Positions 39,271 to 51,746 of a stretch of 64,000 nt of DNA are shown piece by piece; the stretch's first letter is position 1, and each line of letters opens with the position of its first letter. Origin of the DNA: Thermodesulfovibrionales bacterium (GTDB lineage: Bacteria; Nitrospirota; Thermodesulfovibrionia; Thermodesulfovibrionales; SM23-35). The position numbers were made by a program, and so were the translations under genes. The notes under the pieces were generated by a model. The model was not told the DNA's origin. It made no database searches and saw only the letters and a list, made by a program, of their open reading frames with translations. The stretch covers positions 952 to 64,951 of the forward strand of contig JAVHLL010000006.1 of the NCBI GenBank assembly GCA_031082155.1, written 5' to 3'.

Positions 39271-40329
39271 ATGACTATGGACAGAAGAACGAATAGAGAC
39301 ACACAAGAAGAAATCTTTCGCCTTGCTATCGAGGCTTTCCGAAAGAACATCCAGGCGCAAGCCGAGATTGAGATTTTGGCCGAGGAACCTGCCTTTGCAA
39401 TGGGGTTTCGGCCAGACCATCGAGTAAGGATGATGATACAAGAGAAGGCAATGGTTTACTATGCCGAAATAAAAACAACCATTACGAAACCATACAAGCT
39501 CTTATTGCTGATGCACAAAGAGAAACTCAACTACCCTCTTTTATTGGTCGCAAAATATGTAAATGCACAGATGGCGGAGCAGCTGAGGCTTGATGGCATC
39601 GAATTTATCGACACAGCCGGCAACGCCTTTATAAACCAGCCGCCAACATATATATTTTTGAAGGGTAACAAACCGACAGAGGATGTCAGAACAGCTCCGC
39701 TCAAAAGAGCATTCAAGCCCGCAGGCCTCAGAATCATTTATGCTTTCTTGTGTAATCCCGGTTTTGAGAATAAGACCTACCGTGAGATAGCTGGAGCAAC
39801 AGACGTAGCCCTCGGTACAGTCGGCTGGATCATGAAAGAACTAAAGGACCTTGGCTTTCTTTTGGATATGGGGAAACGAGGGAATAAACTGACAGAAAGA
39901 GAAAATCTGTTTCAAAGATGGGTTACAGCTTATCCGGAAAAATTGAGACCAAAGCTAATTCTCGGGCATTATAAAGGCGAACATGGATGGTGGCAGCAGA
40001 AGAAACTTGACCCGCTGGCAGCACAGTGGGGTGGAGAGGTTGCTGCTGAAAAGCTCACACATTACCTCAAACCCGAGGTCATCACGATATATACAACGAC
40101 TCAGCAGCTCAATCAGCTGTTACTCGGGAACAGACTCAGGAAAGATCCTGAAGGAGATGTTGAAATCCTCGAAAAGTTCTGGAAGCCAGTTGGTAAATTG
40201 GAATACGAAGACCTTGTGCATCCGATCCTTGTTTATGCAGATCTCCTGGCAACCGGGAATCAGAGGAATATTGAAACAGCGAAGATGATCTATGAGCAAC
40301 ATATCATTCGACTTATCAGGGAAGATTGA
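39271..40329 (+). CDS. AbiEi-like (type IV TA antitoxin-type) DNA-binding protein with an N-terminal PD-(D/E)xK-like domain
   Basis: 352 aa. D...AEIK nuclease-fold-like motif, central wHTH (YREIAGATDVALGTVGWIMKELKDLGFL) and a C-terminal domain. It is followed by a nucleotidyltransferase. The family call is from memory of the AbiEi_2-type architecture. Confidence 0.6.
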   Translation: MTMDRRTNRDTQEEIFRLAIEAFRKNIQAQAEIEILAEEPAFAMGFRPDHRVRMMIQEKAMVYYAEIKTTITKPYKLLLLMHKEKLNYPLLLVAKYVNAQMAEQLRLDGIEFIDTAGNAFINQPPTYIFLKGNKPTEDVRTAPLKRAFKPAGLRIIYAFLCNPGFENKTYREIAGATDVALGTVGWIMKELKDLGFLLDMGKRGNKLTERENLFQRWVTAYPEKLRPKLILGHYKGEHGWWQQKKLDPLAAQWGGEVAAEKLTHYLKPEVITIYTTTQQLNQLLLGNRLRKDPEGDVEILEKFWKPVGKLEYEDLVHPILVYADLLATGNQRNIETAKMIYEQHIIRLIRED

Positions 40330-43993: not shown

Positions 43994-44821
43994 TTATCGG
44001 TATCGTTCTCTGAATATTTCGAAGTGCATGCTATCAAGATCAATCTTCACGTATGTAAAGTCATCAAGCTGACCTGGCTGTATGCAGGTTGTCTTGCCAA
44101 GTTTCGCGGTCCACTTCCCAGTCATTTGAGGGGATTCATGTATATGCCCATGAAGAGCTAAAAGTGGCTGATTTTTTTTGATGAAGTCGTAGACCGCCTT
44201 CGAACCCACTTCCATACCGCCATAACATTTATCCAGTCCCAGTCTGGCGGGTGGCATGTGAATAACGTATATAGCCTTTCTCATATTTTTAGGACGAACC
44301 AGCCTATCCAACTCACCTTTGAGAGTAGGCAGTGATCTGGCATAGGCAGGCCAGTCCTTTAACTCTTTAAATCCCTGTTGAGTTGACAACAGGCCCGTAC
44401 CGAGCTGCCTCTCGAATACATAGTCGTTCGTATCCATCCGGCATCTGTCCTTCAGACGAAAGGGATAGTCGACAACCCAATTCAAACCGATAAACTCATA
44501 CCCATTGATGTCATACTTTCGCTGGGCCAGAGGCACGACAAAGTTGTATTTGCCACAGACCTCCTCGAATAGCTGATCGTAAATCATAAGATCGTCATTT
44601 CCCAGATAGCAGAGATGGTAGATTCCTGCATCATTAAACTTCTTAAAGTATCCATCCAGAAATGATGTTATAAAATCCTTTTGCTGTGACAGCCCTTCGT
44701 TTTTGGGCAGCATATCGCCACCATTGATCACAATATGTGCCTTTGAGGCTGCTGCGACCTCAAGCAGCCGATTATATTTCCATACGGACCCATGTAAATC
44801 TGTGACAAAGATTATTCTCAT
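43994..44821 (-). CDS. calcineurin-like metallophosphoesterase
   Basis: From the ATG at 44821: MRIIFVTDLHG, INGGDMLP, YLGNDD, LHGHIHESP. Confidence 0.8.
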   Translation of the reverse strand: MRIIFVTDLHGSVWKYNRLLEVAAASKAHIVINGGDMLPKNEGLSQQKDFITSFLDGYFKKFNDAGIYHLCYLGNDDLMIYDQLFEEVCGKYNFVVPLAQRKYDINGYEFIGLNWVVDYPFRLKDRCRMDTNDYVFERQLGTGLLSTQQGFKELKDWPAYARSLPTLKGELDRLVRPKNMRKAIYVIHMPPARLGLDKCYGGMEVGSKAVYDFIKKNQPLLALHGHIHESPQMTGKWTAKLGKTTCIQPGQLDDFTYVKIDLDSMHFEIFRERYR

Positions 44822-44928
44822 TGTATGATTATAGAACTTTTGAATCCTTATGCCGTAGTGCTTGAACGGGTTTTGATGCCGGCACACAGGGGATTTGATT
44901 GCCAAAAAAGATAAACATGTCCTTCTCA

Positions 44929-45573
44929 TTATCGAATGTTTGTTATCAGATAGTAGAGAATGATAGTCAATATAACCGCAGCAATCCATCTTTTTCGAGT
45001 GCTTCTAAACTTATACGGATTGTTCAGAGCAATTTTGTGTGGAGCCACTTTGGGTATTCTGGGGACATATACGTCCGTGCTATTCCATTCCTCCAATAAT
45101 CTCGCTTTGGGTCTGTCAACGGAATCACCCAGGGAAAAGGGATAATTCTCCGCCTTGATTTTGTAAGATCTTGTCACATTCCTCATGTTGCCGTCTGTAC
45201 TTACCAGGATTACTCGCCCAATACCTTCTTCCTTGAGCTTTATTGCGGTTCCAACGATCCTGTTGTCAGCGCTGCTGGCGAGATCATCAATGACATGATA
45301 CTGATTGTATATCCTCACGATGGATCCAGCGGAAGTCCTGGCCCCGGTCGATATGTCCTGATAACTTCCCAGCATATCAAGAGTTCTTGTCACCTGCCTT
45401 GCCGCTTTCGCCCTGTGCTCATCCGGATCAGGATGTTTCTTCAACCCGTCAAGTTCTTTGAGAACAGCGGTGGGTATGACGATCTCATTGCCCCCCAGTT
45501 TAAAGAGGACATCCGGATCTTCTATTAACACGCTGGTATCAATCACAAAGATCTTCTTCCTTACATCATCCAA
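44929..45573 (-). CDS. PIN-domain protein (PhoH/YlaK N-terminal type) with a C-terminal membrane anchor
   Basis: KIFVIDTSVLIEDPDVLFKLGGNEIVIPTAVLKELDGLKK...NRIVGTAI...VILVSTDGNMR. The C-terminus has a hydrophobic WIAAVILTIILYYLI helix. Confidence 0.7.
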   Translation of the reverse strand: MDDVRKKIFVIDTSVLIEDPDVLFKLGGNEIVIPTAVLKELDGLKKHPDPDEHRAKAARQVTRTLDMLGSYQDISTGARTSAGSIVRIYNQYHVIDDLASSADNRIVGTAIKLKEEGIGRVILVSTDGNMRNVTRSYKIKAENYPFSLGDSVDRPKARLLEEWNSTDVYVPRIPKVAPHKIALNNPYKFRSTRKRWIAAVILTIILYYLITNIR

Positions 45574-45769
45574 TATGCTATCTCTCCTTTCTTGGTTATT
45601 TTTAGTGATATCATATAAACTTTTAAAGATAATTTAATATCATTAAGAAGTAATTATAGCATTTTGTGATCATTTGTCAAGTCATTTTATGCTATTATTT
45701 GATTAAGAAATTGATGTTTTTTTCTTCAGGTGATAATATGTATACATTTAAAGACAGGCGGGGTGAACC

Positions 45770-46000
45770 ATGTTGATCGTAAACCTCAAAGCTCTCATAG
45801 AACGGAAAAGCGCTGTAGAAAGAAGGAAGATTACCTATAAAGTAATCGAGCAGGAAACCGGCGTTAAGGCTTTAACCTTATCCAGGATCGCAACCAATCA
45901 CGACTACAACGTCAGCCGGAAGGACCTTGAAAAACTTCTACTCTTTTTCAACTGCCAGCCTAATGATCTACTGACGTTGATCAAAGAGAAAGAAAAATGA
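45770..46000 (+). CDS. small HTH (Cro/C1-type) transcriptional regulator
   Basis: 76 aa. ITYKVIEQETGVKALTLSRIATN...DLEKLLLFFNCQPNDLL. Confidence 0.65.
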   Translation: MLIVNLKALIERKSAVERRKITYKVIEQETGVKALTLSRIATNHDYNVSRKDLEKLLLFFNCQPNDLLTLIKEKEK

Positions 46001-46060
46001 GGACAATGAAAGCACTGATTCCTGTTGAAGTGATTGAAAAGGTTACACTCCTTGACTTTT

Positions 46061-46116
46061 GTTTCACTATAATATATAGTTTCACCATATGGTGAAACAG
46101 TCTTATAAAGTGAAAC
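46061..46116 (+). promoter_or_regulatory. nested inverted-repeat operator: GTTTCAC-n11-GTTTCAC-n6-GTGAAAC-n11-GTGAAAC
   Basis: Half-sites at 46061-67, 46079-85, 46092-98 and 46110-16. The central CATATG contains the ATG (46089) of the downstream gene. The geometry matches 39218-39270. Confidence 0.6.
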
Positions 46117-47171
46117 AGTTTATCGAGAAAGATCTGCTTAAGAGAGCAAAGAACAGTATAACGTCTGTTATTTCAGATATCACCTTCCTTGCACTAAAGG
46201 ACTTTAAAACCAATGCCAGAACCAACAATAAAGAAGTCGATTTTGTATTAAGCACCCTTATTTCCGGAAAGCCTGCAAAATTTATTGTAGAAGTTAAATC
46301 ACAAGGCGAGCCTCGTCTTGTAAGAATGGCAATTGCTCAGCTTAAAGATTATCTTAAGGGCTTTAAAGACTCCTATGGCATACTTGTCGCTCCCTATCTA
46401 AGTGACGCCAGCAGGCAGATATGCAAAGAGGCCGGCATAGGTTGCGTTGATCTGGCAGGTAACGCATTTCTATCCTTCAAGAATGTATTTATAGACAGGA
46501 GTGGCAGGCCCAATCCTTTCGCTGCTACCCGTCTATTAAAATCTGTCTTCTCACCAAAATCAAGCAGGATACTGAGGGTGCTTCTCTCTGCCCCATCAAA
46601 AAAATGGCATGTCGAAGACTTATCTAAAGAAGCAGGTATCAGCATAGGGCTGGCCTCAAGGGTGAAACAGGCGCTTCTTTCTGAAGAATGGATAAAGGAA
46701 GAAAACAAGAGTTTCTATCTTGTCAAACCTGAAGAAGTGCTTAACCAGTGGGTCAATAATTATTCCTATGAAAAGAATCAGAGCTTTTCATTCTATTCAG
46801 GTCTTACAGAAGACCAGATTGAGACAGCAATCAAACAAGAGTGTGAAAAAAGGAAATATCGTTACGGGCTCTCATTATTTTCAGGAGCAAGAAAAGTAGC
46901 GCCGTTTGTAAGATTCATGCGGTTCTTTTCCTATATTGATGGTAACATTGAAAATATTGCAAAAGCCCTACAACTGAAAAAAGTAGAGACCGGAGCAAAT
47001 CTAACGCTTCTTCAGCCATATGATGAAGGTATCTTCTATGGTCTTCAGGATATTAACGGTATTAATGTTGTATCTGACATCCAGCTTTATCTTGATCTGA
47101 AGAATTATAAAGGAAGAGGCGAGGAAGCAGCACAGGCCATATTTGAACAAAGGATTAAGACCAAATGTTGA
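46089..47171 (+). CDS. AbiEi-like DNA-binding protein with an N-terminal PD-(D/E)xK-like domain (paralogous architecture to 39271-40329)
   Basis: 360 aa. EVDFVL...FIVEVKSQG, then the shared block GIGCVDLAGNAF (compare GIEFIDTAGNAF), a wHTH (WHVEDLSKEAGISIGLASRVKQALLSEEWI) and LNQWVNNY (compare FQRWVTAY). Confidence 0.5.
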   Translation: MVKQSYKVKQFIEKDLLKRAKNSITSVISDITFLALKDFKTNARTNNKEVDFVLSTLISGKPAKFIVEVKSQGEPRLVRMAIAQLKDYLKGFKDSYGILVAPYLSDASRQICKEAGIGCVDLAGNAFLSFKNVFIDRSGRPNPFAATRLLKSVFSPKSSRILRVLLSAPSKKWHVEDLSKEAGISIGLASRVKQALLSEEWIKEENKSFYLVKPEEVLNQWVNNYSYEKNQSFSFYSGLTEDQIETAIKQECEKRKYRYGLSLFSGARKVAPFVRFMRFFSYIDGNIENIAKALQLKKVETGANLTLLQPYDEGIFYGLQDINGINVVSDIQLYLDLKNYKGRGEEAAQAIFEQRIKTKC

Positions 47172-47229
47172 TAATGGGTTTTATAATAGTGGGGAAACAG
47201 GATCAAGCGACATATGGAGAGCAGCAATC

Positions 47230-48273
47230 ATGATGACTTTAAAACAATTCTCGATCAAGCCTGAAACCGTACCAAGCATAACGTCGTGGTATCTGTCAGA
47301 CCTCGGCGAAGCTCGCGGGAGACAAGAGCTTTTCACAAAGCAATCTCCTCAGAAGCTAAAGGTTCTTAGGGAACATGCGTTGATAGAAAGCGCCGTATCA
47401 TCAAACCGCATAGAAGGTGTGACTGTCGCTGATGCGCGTATCCGTACTATCGTGTTCGGCAAGTCGCATCTGCGCGACCGCGATGAGGAAGAAGTGCGAG
47501 GGTATCGCAATGCGTTAAAGCTCATTCACGAGCAGGCAGCAAAACTGCCGGTATCGGAGGAGACGATCCTGAATCTGCACAGACTGGCGAAAGGTGACAT
47601 CTGGGATGCCGGTAAATACAAGGAGAAAGAAAGCGACATCATTGAGAAATACCCTGACGGGACTTCGCGTGTGCGATTCAGAACGGTTTCCCCTGCCAAG
47701 ACGCCGGTATTTGTGGCCGAGCTGATTGACCTATGGAATCAATGTCTTCGCGAACGATGGGTGCAACCGATAGTTGCTATGGCAGCGTTTAATCTCGATT
47801 TTCTCTCTATCCATCCCTTCCGTGATGGAAATGGTCGAGTTTCAAGGCTGCTTCTGCTGCTTCAATGCTATCACCTTGGTTATGATGCAGGCCGTTACAT
47901 CAGCATTGAGCGGATTATTGAACAAAGCAAGGATCGGTATTATGAGACTCTTGAACAAAGTTCACAGGACTGGCATGAGGGGAAACATGACCCGTGGCCA
48001 TATATAAACTACGTTCTATACACACTCAAGACTGCTTACAAGGAATTCGAAGAGCGGGTCGGGCAGTTGCGGTCGCCAAAAGGAGCCAAGACGGAGATCA
48101 TTAGGTCTGCAATAGAAAAGACTCTTAGGCCGTTTCGAATCGCTGATATTCAAAAAGAATGCCCCAGCGTGAGTGTAGATTTGATCCGTCAGATCTTGAA
48201 AAAACTGCGTGACGAGGGAAAGGTCGAGTGTCTCGGAAGGGGTCAAAGCGCACAGTGGCAGAAAAGGAAATAG
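47230..48273 (+). CDS. Fic-family protein (AMPylase-type) with a Fic_N inhibitory-helix motif and a C-terminal wHTH
   Basis: Catalytic HPFRDGNGRVSRLL. N-terminal SSNRIEG ([ST]xxxE[GN]). The ATG at 47230 is preceded by GGAGAG; the ORF-track start at 47143 overlaps the upstream gene. Confidence 0.85.
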   Translation: MMTLKQFSIKPETVPSITSWYLSDLGEARGRQELFTKQSPQKLKVLREHALIESAVSSNRIEGVTVADARIRTIVFGKSHLRDRDEEEVRGYRNALKLIHEQAAKLPVSEETILNLHRLAKGDIWDAGKYKEKESDIIEKYPDGTSRVRFRTVSPAKTPVFVAELIDLWNQCLRERWVQPIVAMAAFNLDFLSIHPFRDGNGRVSRLLLLLQCYHLGYDAGRYISIERIIEQSKDRYYETLEQSSQDWHEGKHDPWPYINYVLYTLKTAYKEFEERVGQLRSPKGAKTEIIRSAIEKTLRPFRIADIQKECPSVSVDLIRQILKKLRDEGKVECLGRGQSAQWQKRK

Positions 48274-48464
48274 GTAATATCTATTTAATTGGGTAATGAA
48301 TTAGGTAAGATAACAACCTTTCAGATTTTTCAGAAAAGTGAAGATTGAAGGAAAAGGAATTCCAACACTTGAGCGGGAGGATATTCTTGCATGTGTCGAA
48401 TATGCACCATAGAGCATGGCTGGTCAGAAAAATTTTCGTTCTTCATAAAGGGAGATAGGGTATT

Positions 48465-51400
48465 GTGCATGATGATTTGACCTTCTTCACGAATGAACCG
48501 GGCGCTACCATCCTTGACAGATTCAGGAAAACCCTGAAAGATGTCCAATTCTTTGATATACTCGTCGGCTATTTCCGAACAAGCGGCTTTTTCCGTCTCT
48601 ACAAATCCTTTGAAACAATAGATAAGATCAGAGTCCTTGTCGGCATAAATATCGATAAGACAGCATTTGAAATAATCGAGTCCTCAAAATCACGGGGAAA
48701 GCTTGATTTCGAATCTCACAAACGGACAAAGGAAGTATTCTCCGACGACCTTGCTTATGAAATGGAACATTCTGAGGACACTTATGATACTGAAATAGGG
48801 GTAAAAAAGTTCATTGAATTTTTACAGTCAGGAAAACTCGAAATCAAAGCCTATCCAAGCTCAAAAATCCATGCAAAGGTTTACATAATCCGGTTTTCTG
48901 AAGAAGACCGTGATTACGGGAGAGTGATTACCGGTTCCAGCAATTTTTCAGAAGCCGGCCTTATTGAAAACCTTGAATTCAATGTTGAACTGAAAAATAG
49001 CGCTGATGTTAAGTATGCCCTCGACAAGTTTGAAGCTTTATGGAAAGATGCTGTTGATATCTCCAAGGAATATGTCGAGACGATAAATGCGAGAACCTGG
49101 CTGAATGATTATATCACCCCATATGAGCTTTATCTGAAATTTCTTTATGAATATCTCAAGGAAGATATCAATATAGATGAGGATTTTGAGAGTTATCTCC
49201 CCGAAGGTTTCCTTGATATGAAATACCAGAAGCAGGCTGTGGTTTCAGCAAAAAAGATACTCGATGCCTATAACGGAGTATTTCTCTCCGATGTCGTCGG
49301 ATTGGGCAAAACATATATTTCAGCGCTTCTCGCGCAACAGCTTCCTGGGAAAATTCTTGTTATCTGCCCTCCCGTTCTTGAGGATTACTGGCATGATACT
49401 TTTTTTGAGTTTGGGATAAGAGGCTACAAAGTTGAATCTCTGGGCAAGCTCGACCATATCATAAAAAGCGGAGCGGAACGATTTGATTATATATTTGTCG
49501 ATGAAGCTCATAGGTTCAGAAATGAAGTGACCCTTGGATATGAAAAACTCCATCAGGTTTGTTTTGGCAAGAAGGTGATCCTCGTTTCGGCAACACCCTT
49601 AAATAACACTATTGACGACATTTACAGCCAATTAAAGCTCTTTCAGGTGCCAAAGAAAAGCACAATCCCCGGCGTCCAAAATCTGGAGAAATTCTTTGGG
49701 TCATTAAAGAAGAGAATAAACAAATATCAGAAAAATCAGCCCGAATATATCGATACAATAAAGCTTGTCTCAAAGGAAGTGAGAGACAAAATCCTCAAAT
49801 TTGTTATGGTCCGAAGGACACGCACAGAGGTTATGAAATACTTCAGTGAAGATATGGAGAAACAGAATGTCTCTTTCCCTGAACTGGACGATCCAAAACG
49901 TATTATCTATACCTTTGACGAGAAGACCGGCGATGTTTTCAACAGAACTATTGCCCTTTTGAAGGATTTCTCCTACTCCAGATATACCCCTTTGCTCTAT
50001 CTAAAGACGCCGGTTTCCGAGTTTGAACTCCAGTCTCAACGGAATATCGGAGGATTCATGAAGGGCATCCTTGTGAAACGACTGGAGAGTAGTTTCCACG
50101 CCTTTAAGAACACCCTTAGACGCTTTGTCGATTCTTACCGGAAATTTATCGAAATGTATCAGCAGGGAACTGTTTACATCAGCAAGAAGGTGAATGTTTA
50201 TGATTTTCTTGATGCTGACAATGAAGAAGAGCTATTGAAGCTTGTGGATCTGGACAGGGTTCAGAAATACGAATCCTCTGAGTTCAAAGAAGAATTTCTT
50301 CGTAACCTTCAGAAAGACCTCACTTTACTTGAAAACATTCAAAAACTATGGAGCGATATAGACTCAGATCCGAAGCTCGAACAATTTATTAATGAGCTGA
50401 AAGAGAATCTCATCTTGAAAGAGAACAAGCTTGTTGTCTTTACAGAATCCAAAGAAACCGGTGAATATCTCTTTAAAAAACTAAACAAGCATCTGCCTTC
50501 AAAGGTTCTTTTCTACTCCAGTGTGGGCGGAATTTATGGAGATGATGAGAAGAGCATACCGGTTGCCCGGAACCTGATTAAGGAAAACTTCGACCCGAAG
50601 AACAAACCGCAGAAAGATGATATCAATATACTGATTGCGACAGATATCCTTGCTGAAGGGATTAATCTGCACCGTTCAAATACGGTCATTAACTACGATC
50701 TCCCGTGGAATCCCACTCGTGTATTGCAGCGGGTAGGCAGGGTAAACCGTGTAGGGACTAAGCACAAAGTGATAAATATCTTCAACTTCTTCCCGACTGC
50801 CCAGTCAGACATGCACCTTGGGTTGGAAGCAAACATAAAAGCCAAGATACAGGCATTCCACGACACTCTCGGGGAAGATTCAAGGTATCTTACCGAAGAA
50901 GAAGAAGTCTCCACTCATGAATTATTTGGCGATTTTATTTATAAGAGATTAAGTGACAAGAAAACGTTTCAGGGGGAAGATGAAGAAGAGCGATCGGAGC
51001 TTGAGTATCTTCAGCTTCTTCGGAATATCCGGGATAAGCACCCTTCCTTATTCAAAAAAATAAAACGTCTTCCCAAAAAGGCCCGAACATGCCGGGAGCT
51101 TGAAAACAACAAGAAAGATAATCTGATTACTTTTTTCAGAAAGGGGAAGCTGAAAAAGTTCTTCCTTGCGGATTCCTCTGCTTCGCGCGAACTAACATTT
51201 TTTGAGGCTGTTGATCTTTTCAAATGTGATTCTGCAACCCCTAAAGCGGCCTTCCCTAAAACCTTTTATCCATTCCTTGATGCGAACAAAGCCGCATTTG
51301 ATCAGGCAACGTCCGACGAGACCGCTGAAAAAGATCATCGAGCCAGTAGTTCGAACGAAAGTTATATCATAAAGCGGCTTAAAGCGAAGGATTTGCAGAA

Positions 51401-51662
51401 ATTTTCGGGCTTTACTGAAGAAGATGAAGAGTTTATAAGGTCAGTCTTGAAGGCCTTTGAAAACGGAGTAGTCCCTAAAAATACCAGCAAACGTCTCAAA
51501 AATGAACTCGAAAAAGAAATTGCTCCTCTTAAAGTGCTTGCCATACTGAAAAAGAATCTCCCCCCGACCATTTTGTCTGTGTCACCCTCCACCCAGAAAA
51601 TCGGACATGACAGAAGAGAAGTGATTCTCTCTGAATATCTGTTGAGAATTGGATTAAAATAA
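48465..51662 (+). CDS. PLD (HKD) nuclease domain fused to an SNF2-family helicase
   Basis: 1065 aa with a GTG start. The HKD motif is KIHAKVYII...TGSSNFSEAGL. Helicase motifs: GLGKT, FVDEAHRFRN, SATPLNN, and ATDILAEGINLH...NYDLPWNPTRVLQRVGRVNRVG. Confidence 0.85.
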   Translation: MHDDLTFFTNEPGATILDRFRKTLKDVQFFDILVGYFRTSGFFRLYKSFETIDKIRVLVGINIDKTAFEIIESSKSRGKLDFESHKRTKEVFSDDLAYEMEHSEDTYDTEIGVKKFIEFLQSGKLEIKAYPSSKIHAKVYIIRFSEEDRDYGRVITGSSNFSEAGLIENLEFNVELKNSADVKYALDKFEALWKDAVDISKEYVETINARTWLNDYITPYELYLKFLYEYLKEDINIDEDFESYLPEGFLDMKYQKQAVVSAKKILDAYNGVFLSDVVGLGKTYISALLAQQLPGKILVICPPVLEDYWHDTFFEFGIRGYKVESLGKLDHIIKSGAERFDYIFVDEAHRFRNEVTLGYEKLHQVCFGKKVILVSATPLNNTIDDIYSQLKLFQVPKKSTIPGVQNLEKFFGSLKKRINKYQKNQPEYIDTIKLVSKEVRDKILKFVMVRRTRTEVMKYFSEDMEKQNVSFPELDDPKRIIYTFDEKTGDVFNRTIALLKDFSYSRYTPLLYLKTPVSEFELQSQRNIGGFMKGILVKRLESSFHAFKNTLRRFVDSYRKFIEMYQQGTVYISKKVNVYDFLDADNEEELLKLVDLDRVQKYESSEFKEEFLRNLQKDLTLLENIQKLWSDIDSDPKLEQFINELKENLILKENKLVVFTESKETGEYLFKKLNKHLPSKVLFYSSVGGIYGDDEKSIPVARNLIKENFDPKNKPQKDDINILIATDILAEGINLHRSNTVINYDLPWNPTRVLQRVGRVNRVGTKHKVINIFNFFPTAQSDMHLGLEANIKAKIQAFHDTLGEDSRYLTEEEEVSTHELFGDFIYKRLSDKKTFQGEDEEERSELEYLQLLRNIRDKHPSLFKKIKRLPKKARTCRELENNKKDNLITFFRKGKLKKFFLADSSASRELTFFEAVDLFKCDSATPKAAFPKTFYPFLDANKAAFDQATSDETAEKDHRASSSNESYIIKRLKAKDLQKFSGFTEEDEEFIRSVLKAFENGVVPKNTSKRLKNELEKEIAPLKVLAILKKNLPPTILSVSPSTQKIGHDRREVILSEYLLRIGLK

Positions 51663-51746
51663 TTCCGTCTCATATATTGACAAAAGCATCTTTATAATGT
51701 ATTCTTTTAGCATAATCTAATTTGAATAATGCAATGGGAGTAGTAA

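Follow-up and report, generated by a model that had tools for sequence, protein, structure and literature searches.

The question raised by this locus is whether two adjacent genes in a bacterial defence island form a functional pair or owe their neighbourhood to recombination. The locus lies in a 64,000-nucleotide (nt) stretch of contig JAVHLL010000006.1 from a Thermodesulfovibrionales bacterium (hereafter the window, to whose numbering all positions refer). It consists of a gene for a 360-amino-acid (aa) AbiEi_2 regulator of the COG4861 type, a member of the AbiE family of phage defence, preceded by a nested operator and followed after 58 nt by a gene for a Fic protein. An earlier interpretation made from the letters of the DNA (the sequence-only reading) had combined both genes and a small upstream helix-turn-helix (HTH) gene into a three-gene module and had postulated a modular family in which AbiEi-like autoregulators are coupled to interchangeable effectors, i.e. 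a nucleotidyltransferase or Fic. We come to a different answer: with a probability of about 0.8, the locus is chimeric, composed of two independent units that were recombined in one lineage only and do not depend on each other. Both parts are of known kinds, i.e. an AbiE cassette (COG4861/COG4849) and a class II SoFic-like Fic gene, and their chimeric junction is real and belongs to one lineage. What we describe is a recombination scar and not a new conserved toxin–antitoxin family.

Two sets of relatives were used for comparison. On the AbiEi_2 side, 80 related loci were fetched from species-representative genomes; on the Fic side, a relative with an identity of 68% or more was the basis for collecting 83 loci, in which AbiEi_2 was sought within 4 kb both by tblastn and with a hidden Markov model (HMM) of the family. 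The locus designated L001 is on a sister contig from a Nitrospira metagenome-assembled genome, which shares 93% identity with the window along 5.6 kb (L084 in the Fic set is the same contig).

The regular toxin partner has been lost

Directly behind AbiEi_2, 60 of the 80 loci carry an open reading frame (ORF) of ~280 aa on the same strand, whose ATG mostly lies 7 nt before the AbiEi_2 stop codon (ATGGTAA), i.e. the two genes overlap. Pfam searches with 59 of these partners returned AbiEii for 25 and NTP_transf_8 for 16, and a sequence search of the PDB with the partner profile gave no match. By these assignments, an overlapping ~280-aa nucleotidyltransferase is the regular partner of this AbiEi_2 family, and the COG4861–COG4849 gene pair was already noted by Dy et al. 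2014 (PMC3985639). The sequence-only reading was right, then, in that Fic occupies the place of a nucleotidyltransferase toxin.

The cognate toxin is not located elsewhere either: the partner profile found no match in the window's 2.65-Mb genome or in the genome of L001, with the same search yielding E values of 1e-138 and 1e-134 in two control genomes. The relatives at 88–89% identity (L167, L169 and L171) have an intact nucleotidyltransferase gene, and L166 has a copy interrupted by a transposase. In the AbiEi_2 gene tree, the toxin-less sequences (window, L168, L001 and L170) form a clade with a support of 0.999, nested among nucleotidyltransferase-bearing copies, and this topology argues for the toxin-less state as the derived one. 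The two copies next to Fic, i.e. those of the window and L001, are not mutual closest relatives in this tree.

A scar of deletion and replacement

The junction was defined by aligning the window with L001 and with the canonical loci L002–L010. L001 retains ATGGTAAGTAAAA, i.e. the first 13 nt of the canonical nucleotidyltransferase gene, and continues with TTTTGATGATGGGTTTTATAATAGTGGGG from the Fic leader. In the window, an extra deletion of 12 nt has left just the ATG of the former toxin gene and has altered the C-terminus of AbiEi_2 from ...W* to ...KTKC*. Judged by this alignment, the junction is the scar of a deletion combined with a replacement. The closest relatives from metagenomes share the truncation. 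In L168 (94% protein identity), it is followed by unrelated sequence and no Fic gene; in L170 (91%), which has the closest relative of the AbiEi_2 of L001, part of the Fic leader follows in diverged form (21 of 25 nt), and a different gene comes next. The slot behind the truncated AbiEi_2 gene has therefore been refilled at least once. The gene in the Fic position of L170 (1354–1467 of that contig) begins with MPATFAHCLLATRAIDVLGKKK and has no Pfam match, with the contig ending after 38 codons.

At the cassette borders, neither an integron-like attC nor another defined recombination site could be delimited, and no recombinase was identified at the breakpoints. What the borders have in common is a brief TTGAT stretch, and there is a leader element of 25 nt, the latter being limited to the Fic copies of 97–98% identity and, in diverged form, to L170.

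AbiEi_2, Fic and HTH genes assort independently

If AbiEi_2 and Fic were a pair, they should be found together. An AbiEi_2 gene followed by a close copy of the window's Fic gene occurs in one of the 80 AbiEi_2 loci (tblastn), which is L001, and Fic has AbiEi_2 within 4 kb in one of the 83 Fic loci (tblastn and HMM), which is L084, with the other 82 being without. Both counts go back to the same sister contig. A family with interchangeable effectors is not borne out by these numbers, and co-occurrence of Fic and regulator elsewhere, on which that proposal had been staked, is essentially missing.

The 1150-bp Fic cassette recurs at 97–98% identity in at least three other upstream contexts. In L081, a Fic gene of 98% identity follows an NTP_transf_2 gene; in L082, the order is PIN–HTH–Fic–PLD/SNF2, where PIN_4 and HTH are those also present in the window; both are without AbiEi_2. 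L082 lacks the counterpart of 46014–47161 and instead has 21 nt with a small palindrome. L001, on the other hand, lacks 44859–46050, i.e. the PIN_4 and HTH genes. In all four Fic copies compared, the motifs are intact. Together with L168 and L170, these split arrangements show that HTH, AbiEi_2 and Fic assort independently among near-identical relatives.

The HTH gene (HTH76) occurs in none of the 80 AbiEi_2 loci, including L001, and beside Fic in one of the 83 Fic loci. In L082, it adjoins Fic and there is no AbiEi_2; in L168, it adjoins AbiEi_2 and there is no Fic. On this distribution, we reject a three-gene module with HTH76.

The independent assortment also bears on the main rival reading, which is a functional effector swap. 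AbiEi_2 and Fic would then be a working two-gene defence or addiction unit, in which AbiEi_2 represses Fic from the shared promoter and loss of AbiEi_2, e.g. in a phage-induced shut-off, releases Fic. Such a unit is difficult to reconcile with a 98% identical Fic with intact motifs that does without AbiEi_2 in L081 and L082, with truncated AbiEi_2 that does without Fic in L168 and L170, with an arrangement seen once on either side of the comparison, and with a Fic protein that has an inhibitory helix of its own. Nevertheless, the 58-nt spacer contains no terminator-like site, no stable hairpin and no structured RNA (z-score −0.03), and a sigma-70 promoter scan before Fic gave no full match, which makes co-transcription of AbiEi_2 and Fic probable. 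Moreover, two diverged genomes have kept both genes intact under purifying selection, and the junction predates the divergence of the four toxin-less sequences. For a wild-type SoFic relative, toxicity in E. coli has been reported, together with a need for tight repression or an antidote, which is a small downstream protein (PMC12249575). Weighing these points, we consider the effector swap unlikely.

The orphan regulator gene is still under selection

For AbiEi_2, the ratio of nonsynonymous to synonymous substitution rates (dN/dS) is 0.16–0.26 in the toxin-less clade versus 0.10–0.17 in canonical pairs. As far as substitution patterns can tell, the orphan gene has experienced some relaxation and is clearly still under purifying selection. 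All of the ~100 columns that are invariant in a 20-sequence AbiEi_2 alignment are retained, and none of the four toxin-less copies has an interruption in its 360-codon frame.

These data also speak to the idea of a decaying remnant, i.e. a functionless AbiEi_2 gene on its way to a pseudogene. A cognate toxin that is gone from the genome, a dN/dS about twice that of canonical pairs, a mutated fourth half-site of the operator in L001 and L170 and complete loss of the gene in L082 would all be expected of such a remnant. Open frames with the invariant columns preserved, a dN/dS far below 1 and a promoter and four half-sites that are perfect in the window would not, and we regard decay as quite improbable.

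Between window and L001, synonymous divergence (dS) is 0.085 for Fic and 0.20 for AbiEi_2; the lower divergence of Fic suggests later recombination in the Fic–helicase part. Across 46040–51700, identity to L001 comes in blocks, with ~87–95% for AbiEi_2, 94–99% for Fic and the first part of PLD-SNF2, and 83–89% for the 3' end of the helicase gene, which indicates mosaic recombination within the island.

Table 1. Positions of the elements that make up the locus, and of the adjacent HTH gene.
Feature	Positions	Strand	Description
Sigma-70-like promoter of the AbiEi_2 gene	46052..46080	+	−35 TTGACT (46052–46057), 17-nt spacer, −10 TATAGT (46075–46080)
Four-half-site operator	46061..46116		GTTTCAC-n11-GTTTCAC-CATATG-GTGAAAC-n11-GTGAAAC; half-sites GTTTCAC 46061–46067 and 46079–46085, GTGAAAC 46092–46098 and 46110–46116; spacers 11/6/11 nt; overlaps the −10 box and the first 9 codons
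Orphan AbiEi_2 (COG4861-type) gene, 360 aa	46089..47171	+	N-terminal PD-(D/E)xK-like domain, winged HTH, C-terminal AbiEi_2 domain
Fic cassette	47162..48312	+	~65 nt conserved leader, Fic coding sequence and 39 nt tail; breakpoints by blastn against L081, L082 and L001
Junction scar	47165..47172	+	Relic nucleotidyltransferase ATG (47165–47167), then 12-nt deletion relative to L001, then TTGAT of the Fic leader
Class II SoFic-like Fic gene, 347 aa	47230..48273	+	SNRIEG at residue 58, HPFRDGNGRVSR at residue 195
Cro/C1-type HTH gene (HTH76), 76 aa	45770..46000	+	Pfam HTH_26, E 7e-8; neighbour only

The nested operator belongs to the AbiEi_2 family

The operator in front of AbiEi_2 is exactly as the sequence-only reading had described it, with the start codon of the gene inside the central CATATG. 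GTTTCAC-N11-GTTTCAC matches twice in the whole window, once per strand, and both matches are at this operator; 0.02 would be expected by chance, and two matches never arose in 100 shuffles. Operator layout and residue conservation were followed in 74 related loci with upstream sequence and 74 family members, respectively. The four-half-site layout with its 18-bp pitch, placed directly after the CTTGACTTTTG −35 box, is present in 60 of the 74 loci, and the box itself is kept in most related loci. The nested geometry therefore characterizes the AbiEi_2 family and is unrelated to Fic. In divergent branches, the half-site shifts from GTTTCAC to TTTCAGC and to TGTTGTC, a pattern that fits co-evolution with the winged HTH (wHTH) domain. 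The same design recurs with other half-sites in the cassette at 39271, as had been noticed before. There, two copies of TGTTCAT are followed by two of (C/G)TGAACA at a pitch of 17 instead of 18.

The AbiEi_2 promoter matches the consensus used in the scan at 10 of 12 positions and overlaps the left half-sites. It would place the transcription start at ~46087–46089 and hence give a leaderless or nearly leaderless mRNA, unless translation begins at an in-frame GTG of the right half-sites (46092 or 46110), both of which are possible alternative starts. In several relatives, the central ATG is missing or an ATG lies within the fourth half-site. By analogy with AbiEi and Rv2827c, AbiEi_2 most likely binds these half-sites. 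A 33-codon ORF overlapping the operator (45998–46099) was not counted as a gene, because its conservation in L082 ends after codon 6.

Domains of the AbiEi_2 protein

The 360-aa protein and the AbiEi-like protein of 352 aa encoded at 39271 are related, as the sequence-only reading had it. Both have a C-terminal Pfam AbiEi_2 domain (PF09952; E 5.9e-12 and 3.4e-43, respectively), which in the 360-aa protein scores 46.6 bits and exceeds the cut-off of 21 bits, so that the protein has the antitoxin domain of AbiE. Aligned to each other (BLASTP E 1e-7; hhalign probability 93%, E 2.9e-7, residues 95–227), they share the end of the N-terminal domain, the DxAGNAF block, the wHTH and the W..Y block. 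The shared motifs pointed out earlier are conserved throughout the family: D51 in 70, E68 in 67 and K70 in 60 of the 74 members make up the D...E-x-K triad, and D121 and G124 of the D-x-(A/S)-G-N motif, which is invariant, as well as W221 of the W..Y block occur in all 74. Homologues are widespread, with 1599 matches across many phyla, many of them 70–94% identical.

An AlphaFold2 model of the protein has a mean predicted local distance difference test score (pLDDT) of 61, with ~80 for the N-terminal and wHTH parts; since the C-terminal AbiEi_2 domain was modelled at a pLDDT below 50, statements on the fold cover the N-terminal and wHTH parts. In Foldseek comparisons of this predicted structure, the N-terminal domain resembles NucS/EndoMS, SfsA and restriction endonucleases, and the middle domain resembles the wHTH proteins MarR, IclR and Sso10a. 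The PD-(D/E)xK-like domain lies outside the Pfam model, at 46089–46500 (residues 1–135) and likewise at 39271–39680 in the second cassette. Because the triad is conserved, the N-terminal domain in COG4861 AbiEi_2 proteins may possess nuclease activity and have its own role.

Fic carries its own inhibitory helix

The Fic gene most likely starts at ATG 47230, which has a GGAGAG Shine–Dalgarno sequence and is favoured over TTG 47143. Its product matches Pfam Fic with an E value of 1.3e-15, and the HxFx(D/E)GNGRxxR motif is present as HPFRDGNGRVSR. The inhibitory (S/T)xxxE(G/N) motif lies N-terminal to the Fic core on the same polypeptide, and this is so in all 83 loci of what is an abundant and well conserved family. 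Both elements are thus intact, in line with the earlier description. The PADLOC model PDLC03963, which represents SoFic as a single-gene anti-phage system, matches over 305 residues (E 4.4e-34); in comparison to the NCBIfam SoFic equivalog, the score is 54 bits with a cut-off of 550, i.e. the protein is a SoFic relative rather than an orthologue. From these motifs, Fic is predicted to be autonomous, self-contained and auto-inhibited in cis.

This bears on a further alternative, in which AbiEi_2 and Fic would be a true toxin–antitoxin pair, with the C-terminal domain of AbiEi_2 directly neutralizing Fic as AbiEi does with AbiEii. Gene order and spacing do look like those of a toxin–antitoxin operon, and the C-terminal domain has been kept and is conserved. 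The characterized AbiEi and MenA3 antitoxins, however, bind the nucleotidyltransferase and induce its auto-phosphorylation, a mechanism specific for the fold of the toxin (PMC11375011; bioRxiv 10.64898/2026.01.19.700257). Furthermore, AbiEi_2 has no [ST]xxxE[GN] helix, Fic has one in cis, intact Fic proteins occur without AbiEi_2 in L081 and L082, and the pairing is not conserved. For these reasons, direct neutralization of Fic by AbiEi_2 seems very improbable indeed. A literature search for an AbiEi–Fic pairing found none, in agreement with the sequence-only reading; a mycoplasma paper that names both treats them as separate pairs.

How the chimera may operate

We thus return to the reading of the locus as a chimera. 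Unit one (46051–47168) would be the front half of a COG4861/COG4849-type AbiE cassette, i.e. promoter, four half-sites and AbiEi_2, whose cognate nucleotidyltransferase gene was cut off after codon 4. AbiEi_2 most likely binds the half-sites via its wHTH domain and represses its own transcription, probably from a leaderless transcript. Unit two, the Fic cassette, would be a self-contained SoFic-type gene that is mobile across contexts and often found beside helicase or restriction genes; here, it adjoins PLD-SNF2. With the AbiEi_2 promoter probably reading into Fic, Fic would come partly under AbiEi_2 autorepression. Such shared control would be a side effect of the junction, albeit a possibly useful one, since a SoFic relative is reported to be toxic in E. 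coli (PMC12249575) and tight repression from a captured autoregulated promoter could be of advantage. The retained orphan itself may serve as a regulator and/or provide immunity against incoming homologous AbiE cassettes. In a more far-reaching scenario, orphaned AbiEi-type autorepressors would find a second use with toxic effectors, e.g. SoFic-type Fic proteins, for which they would provide a promoter and regulator in one tight and self-limiting unit, and the junction of truncated AbiEi_2 with Fic would be a selected hybrid defence unit; this we consider a doubtful proposition.

Several points weigh against our interpretation. A conserved TATAAT in the Fic leader (~47183–47188) could belong to a promoter of Fic itself, in which case read-through would be unimportant. 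The junction has persisted to an AbiEi_2 dS of ~0.2 between window and L001 with both genes intact, which would also fit a selected functional coupling. The contigs available for comparison are mostly short and metagenomic. Finally, DNA binding and repression by this AbiEi_2 subfamily are argued by analogy, with COG4861-type antitoxins having been left uncharacterized in the studies of related systems (PMC11375011; bioRxiv 10.64898/2026.01.19.700257).

Other features of the island

Upstream neighbours of Fic are heterogeneous, the commonest being SNF2/NOV_C helicases (of 39 upstream ORFs scanned, 8 have a NOV_C and 6 an SNF2 domain). In eight of the 83 Fic loci (L083, L088, L093, L095, L098, L104, L123 and L129), there is a 4-nt overlap between the upstream gene and the start of Fic; where complete (L083, L104 and L123), the upstream gene encodes a SNF2 helicase of ~1150–1250 aa. 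By this arrangement, a translationally coupled helicase–Fic pair may represent a conserved defence module of its own. Just 5' of the Fic leader, loci without AbiEi_2 have short palindromes, i.e. GTCACAAATTGTGAC in L082 (1231–1251) and GTCCATGACGTGGAC in L081 (~590–625), which may be operators or the ends of upstream units.

The spacer between Fic and PLD-SNF2 contains a 24-codon ORF, VKIEGKGIPTLEREDILACVEYAP* (48338–48412), which L001 and L082 have conserved. Its match to Pfam DUF433 covers the final 16 positions of the model at a sub-cut-off E value of 0.0066. A DUF433 gene has probably been lost here except for its tail, which would be another scar. On the minus strand upstream of HTH76 (43994–45573), two genes stand in tandem, one for a PIN_4 protein (214 aa, E 2.8e-25) and the other for a metallophosphoesterase of the calcineurin-like type (331 aa); L001 retains the phosphoesterase gene.

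Comparison with known systems

With AbiE of the COG4861/COG4849 type, the locus shares the AbiEi_2 domain, the wHTH and inverted and direct repeats over the promoter, and in its relatives the nucleotidyltransferase gene overlaps the AbiEi_2 stop codon. It differs in that its own nucleotidyltransferase gene has been lost beyond codon 4 and does not occur elsewhere in the genome; with a relic ATG in place of a toxin, the locus does not pass as AbiE. Its regulator also has an N-terminal PD-(D/E)xK-like domain, which the studied COG5340-type AbiEi proteins (AbiEi of Streptococcus agalactiae and Rv2827c) do not have. The AbiE operator of S. agalactiae consists of two 23-bp inverted repeats, whereas here there are four 7-nt half-sites with an 18-bp pitch. 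For the COG4861 AbiEi_2 family, a conserved operator architecture and a nuclease-like N-terminal domain have thus been defined, both of which are directly testable.

Like SoFic and other class II Fic proteins, the Fic protein has HPFRDGNGRVSR, an in-cis N-terminal SxxxEG, a length of ~350 aa, a place in a defence island and stand-alone mobility. Class II has been described by an N-terminal inhibitory helix (Engel et al. 2012, as cited in PMC3985639). In contrast to SoFic, the conserved cassette contains no downstream gene like that for the 47-aa AS1, and Fic stands here behind an orphan AbiEi_2 promoter. Class I systems of the FicT/FicA type (VbhT/VbhA) differ by an inhibitory helix that a separate small antitoxin supplies in trans, a motif that is absent from AbiEi_2 and HTH76 and present in cis in Fic. 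The locus is also distinct from the mobile mystery proteins A and B (TIGR02612/TIGR02613), with a TIGR02613 score of 20 bits versus a cut-off of 124.4 and no NCBIfam match for HTH76.

Also close in kind are orphan antitoxins and shuffled cassettes in islands of defence or toxin–antitoxin genes. Although the present locus offers a short shared TTGAT rather than a recombinase or a defined recombination site, it has in common with them an antitoxin that was kept after loss of its toxin, sharp breakpoints common to relatives, and neighbours that vary among near-identical strains. It provides a base-level snapshot of how a defence-island cassette is rebuilt, with the toxin replaced at a precise breakpoint, the regulator retained under selection and every intermediate arrangement present in near-identical relatives, and it cautions that adjacency in defence islands is not to be equated with a functional pair.

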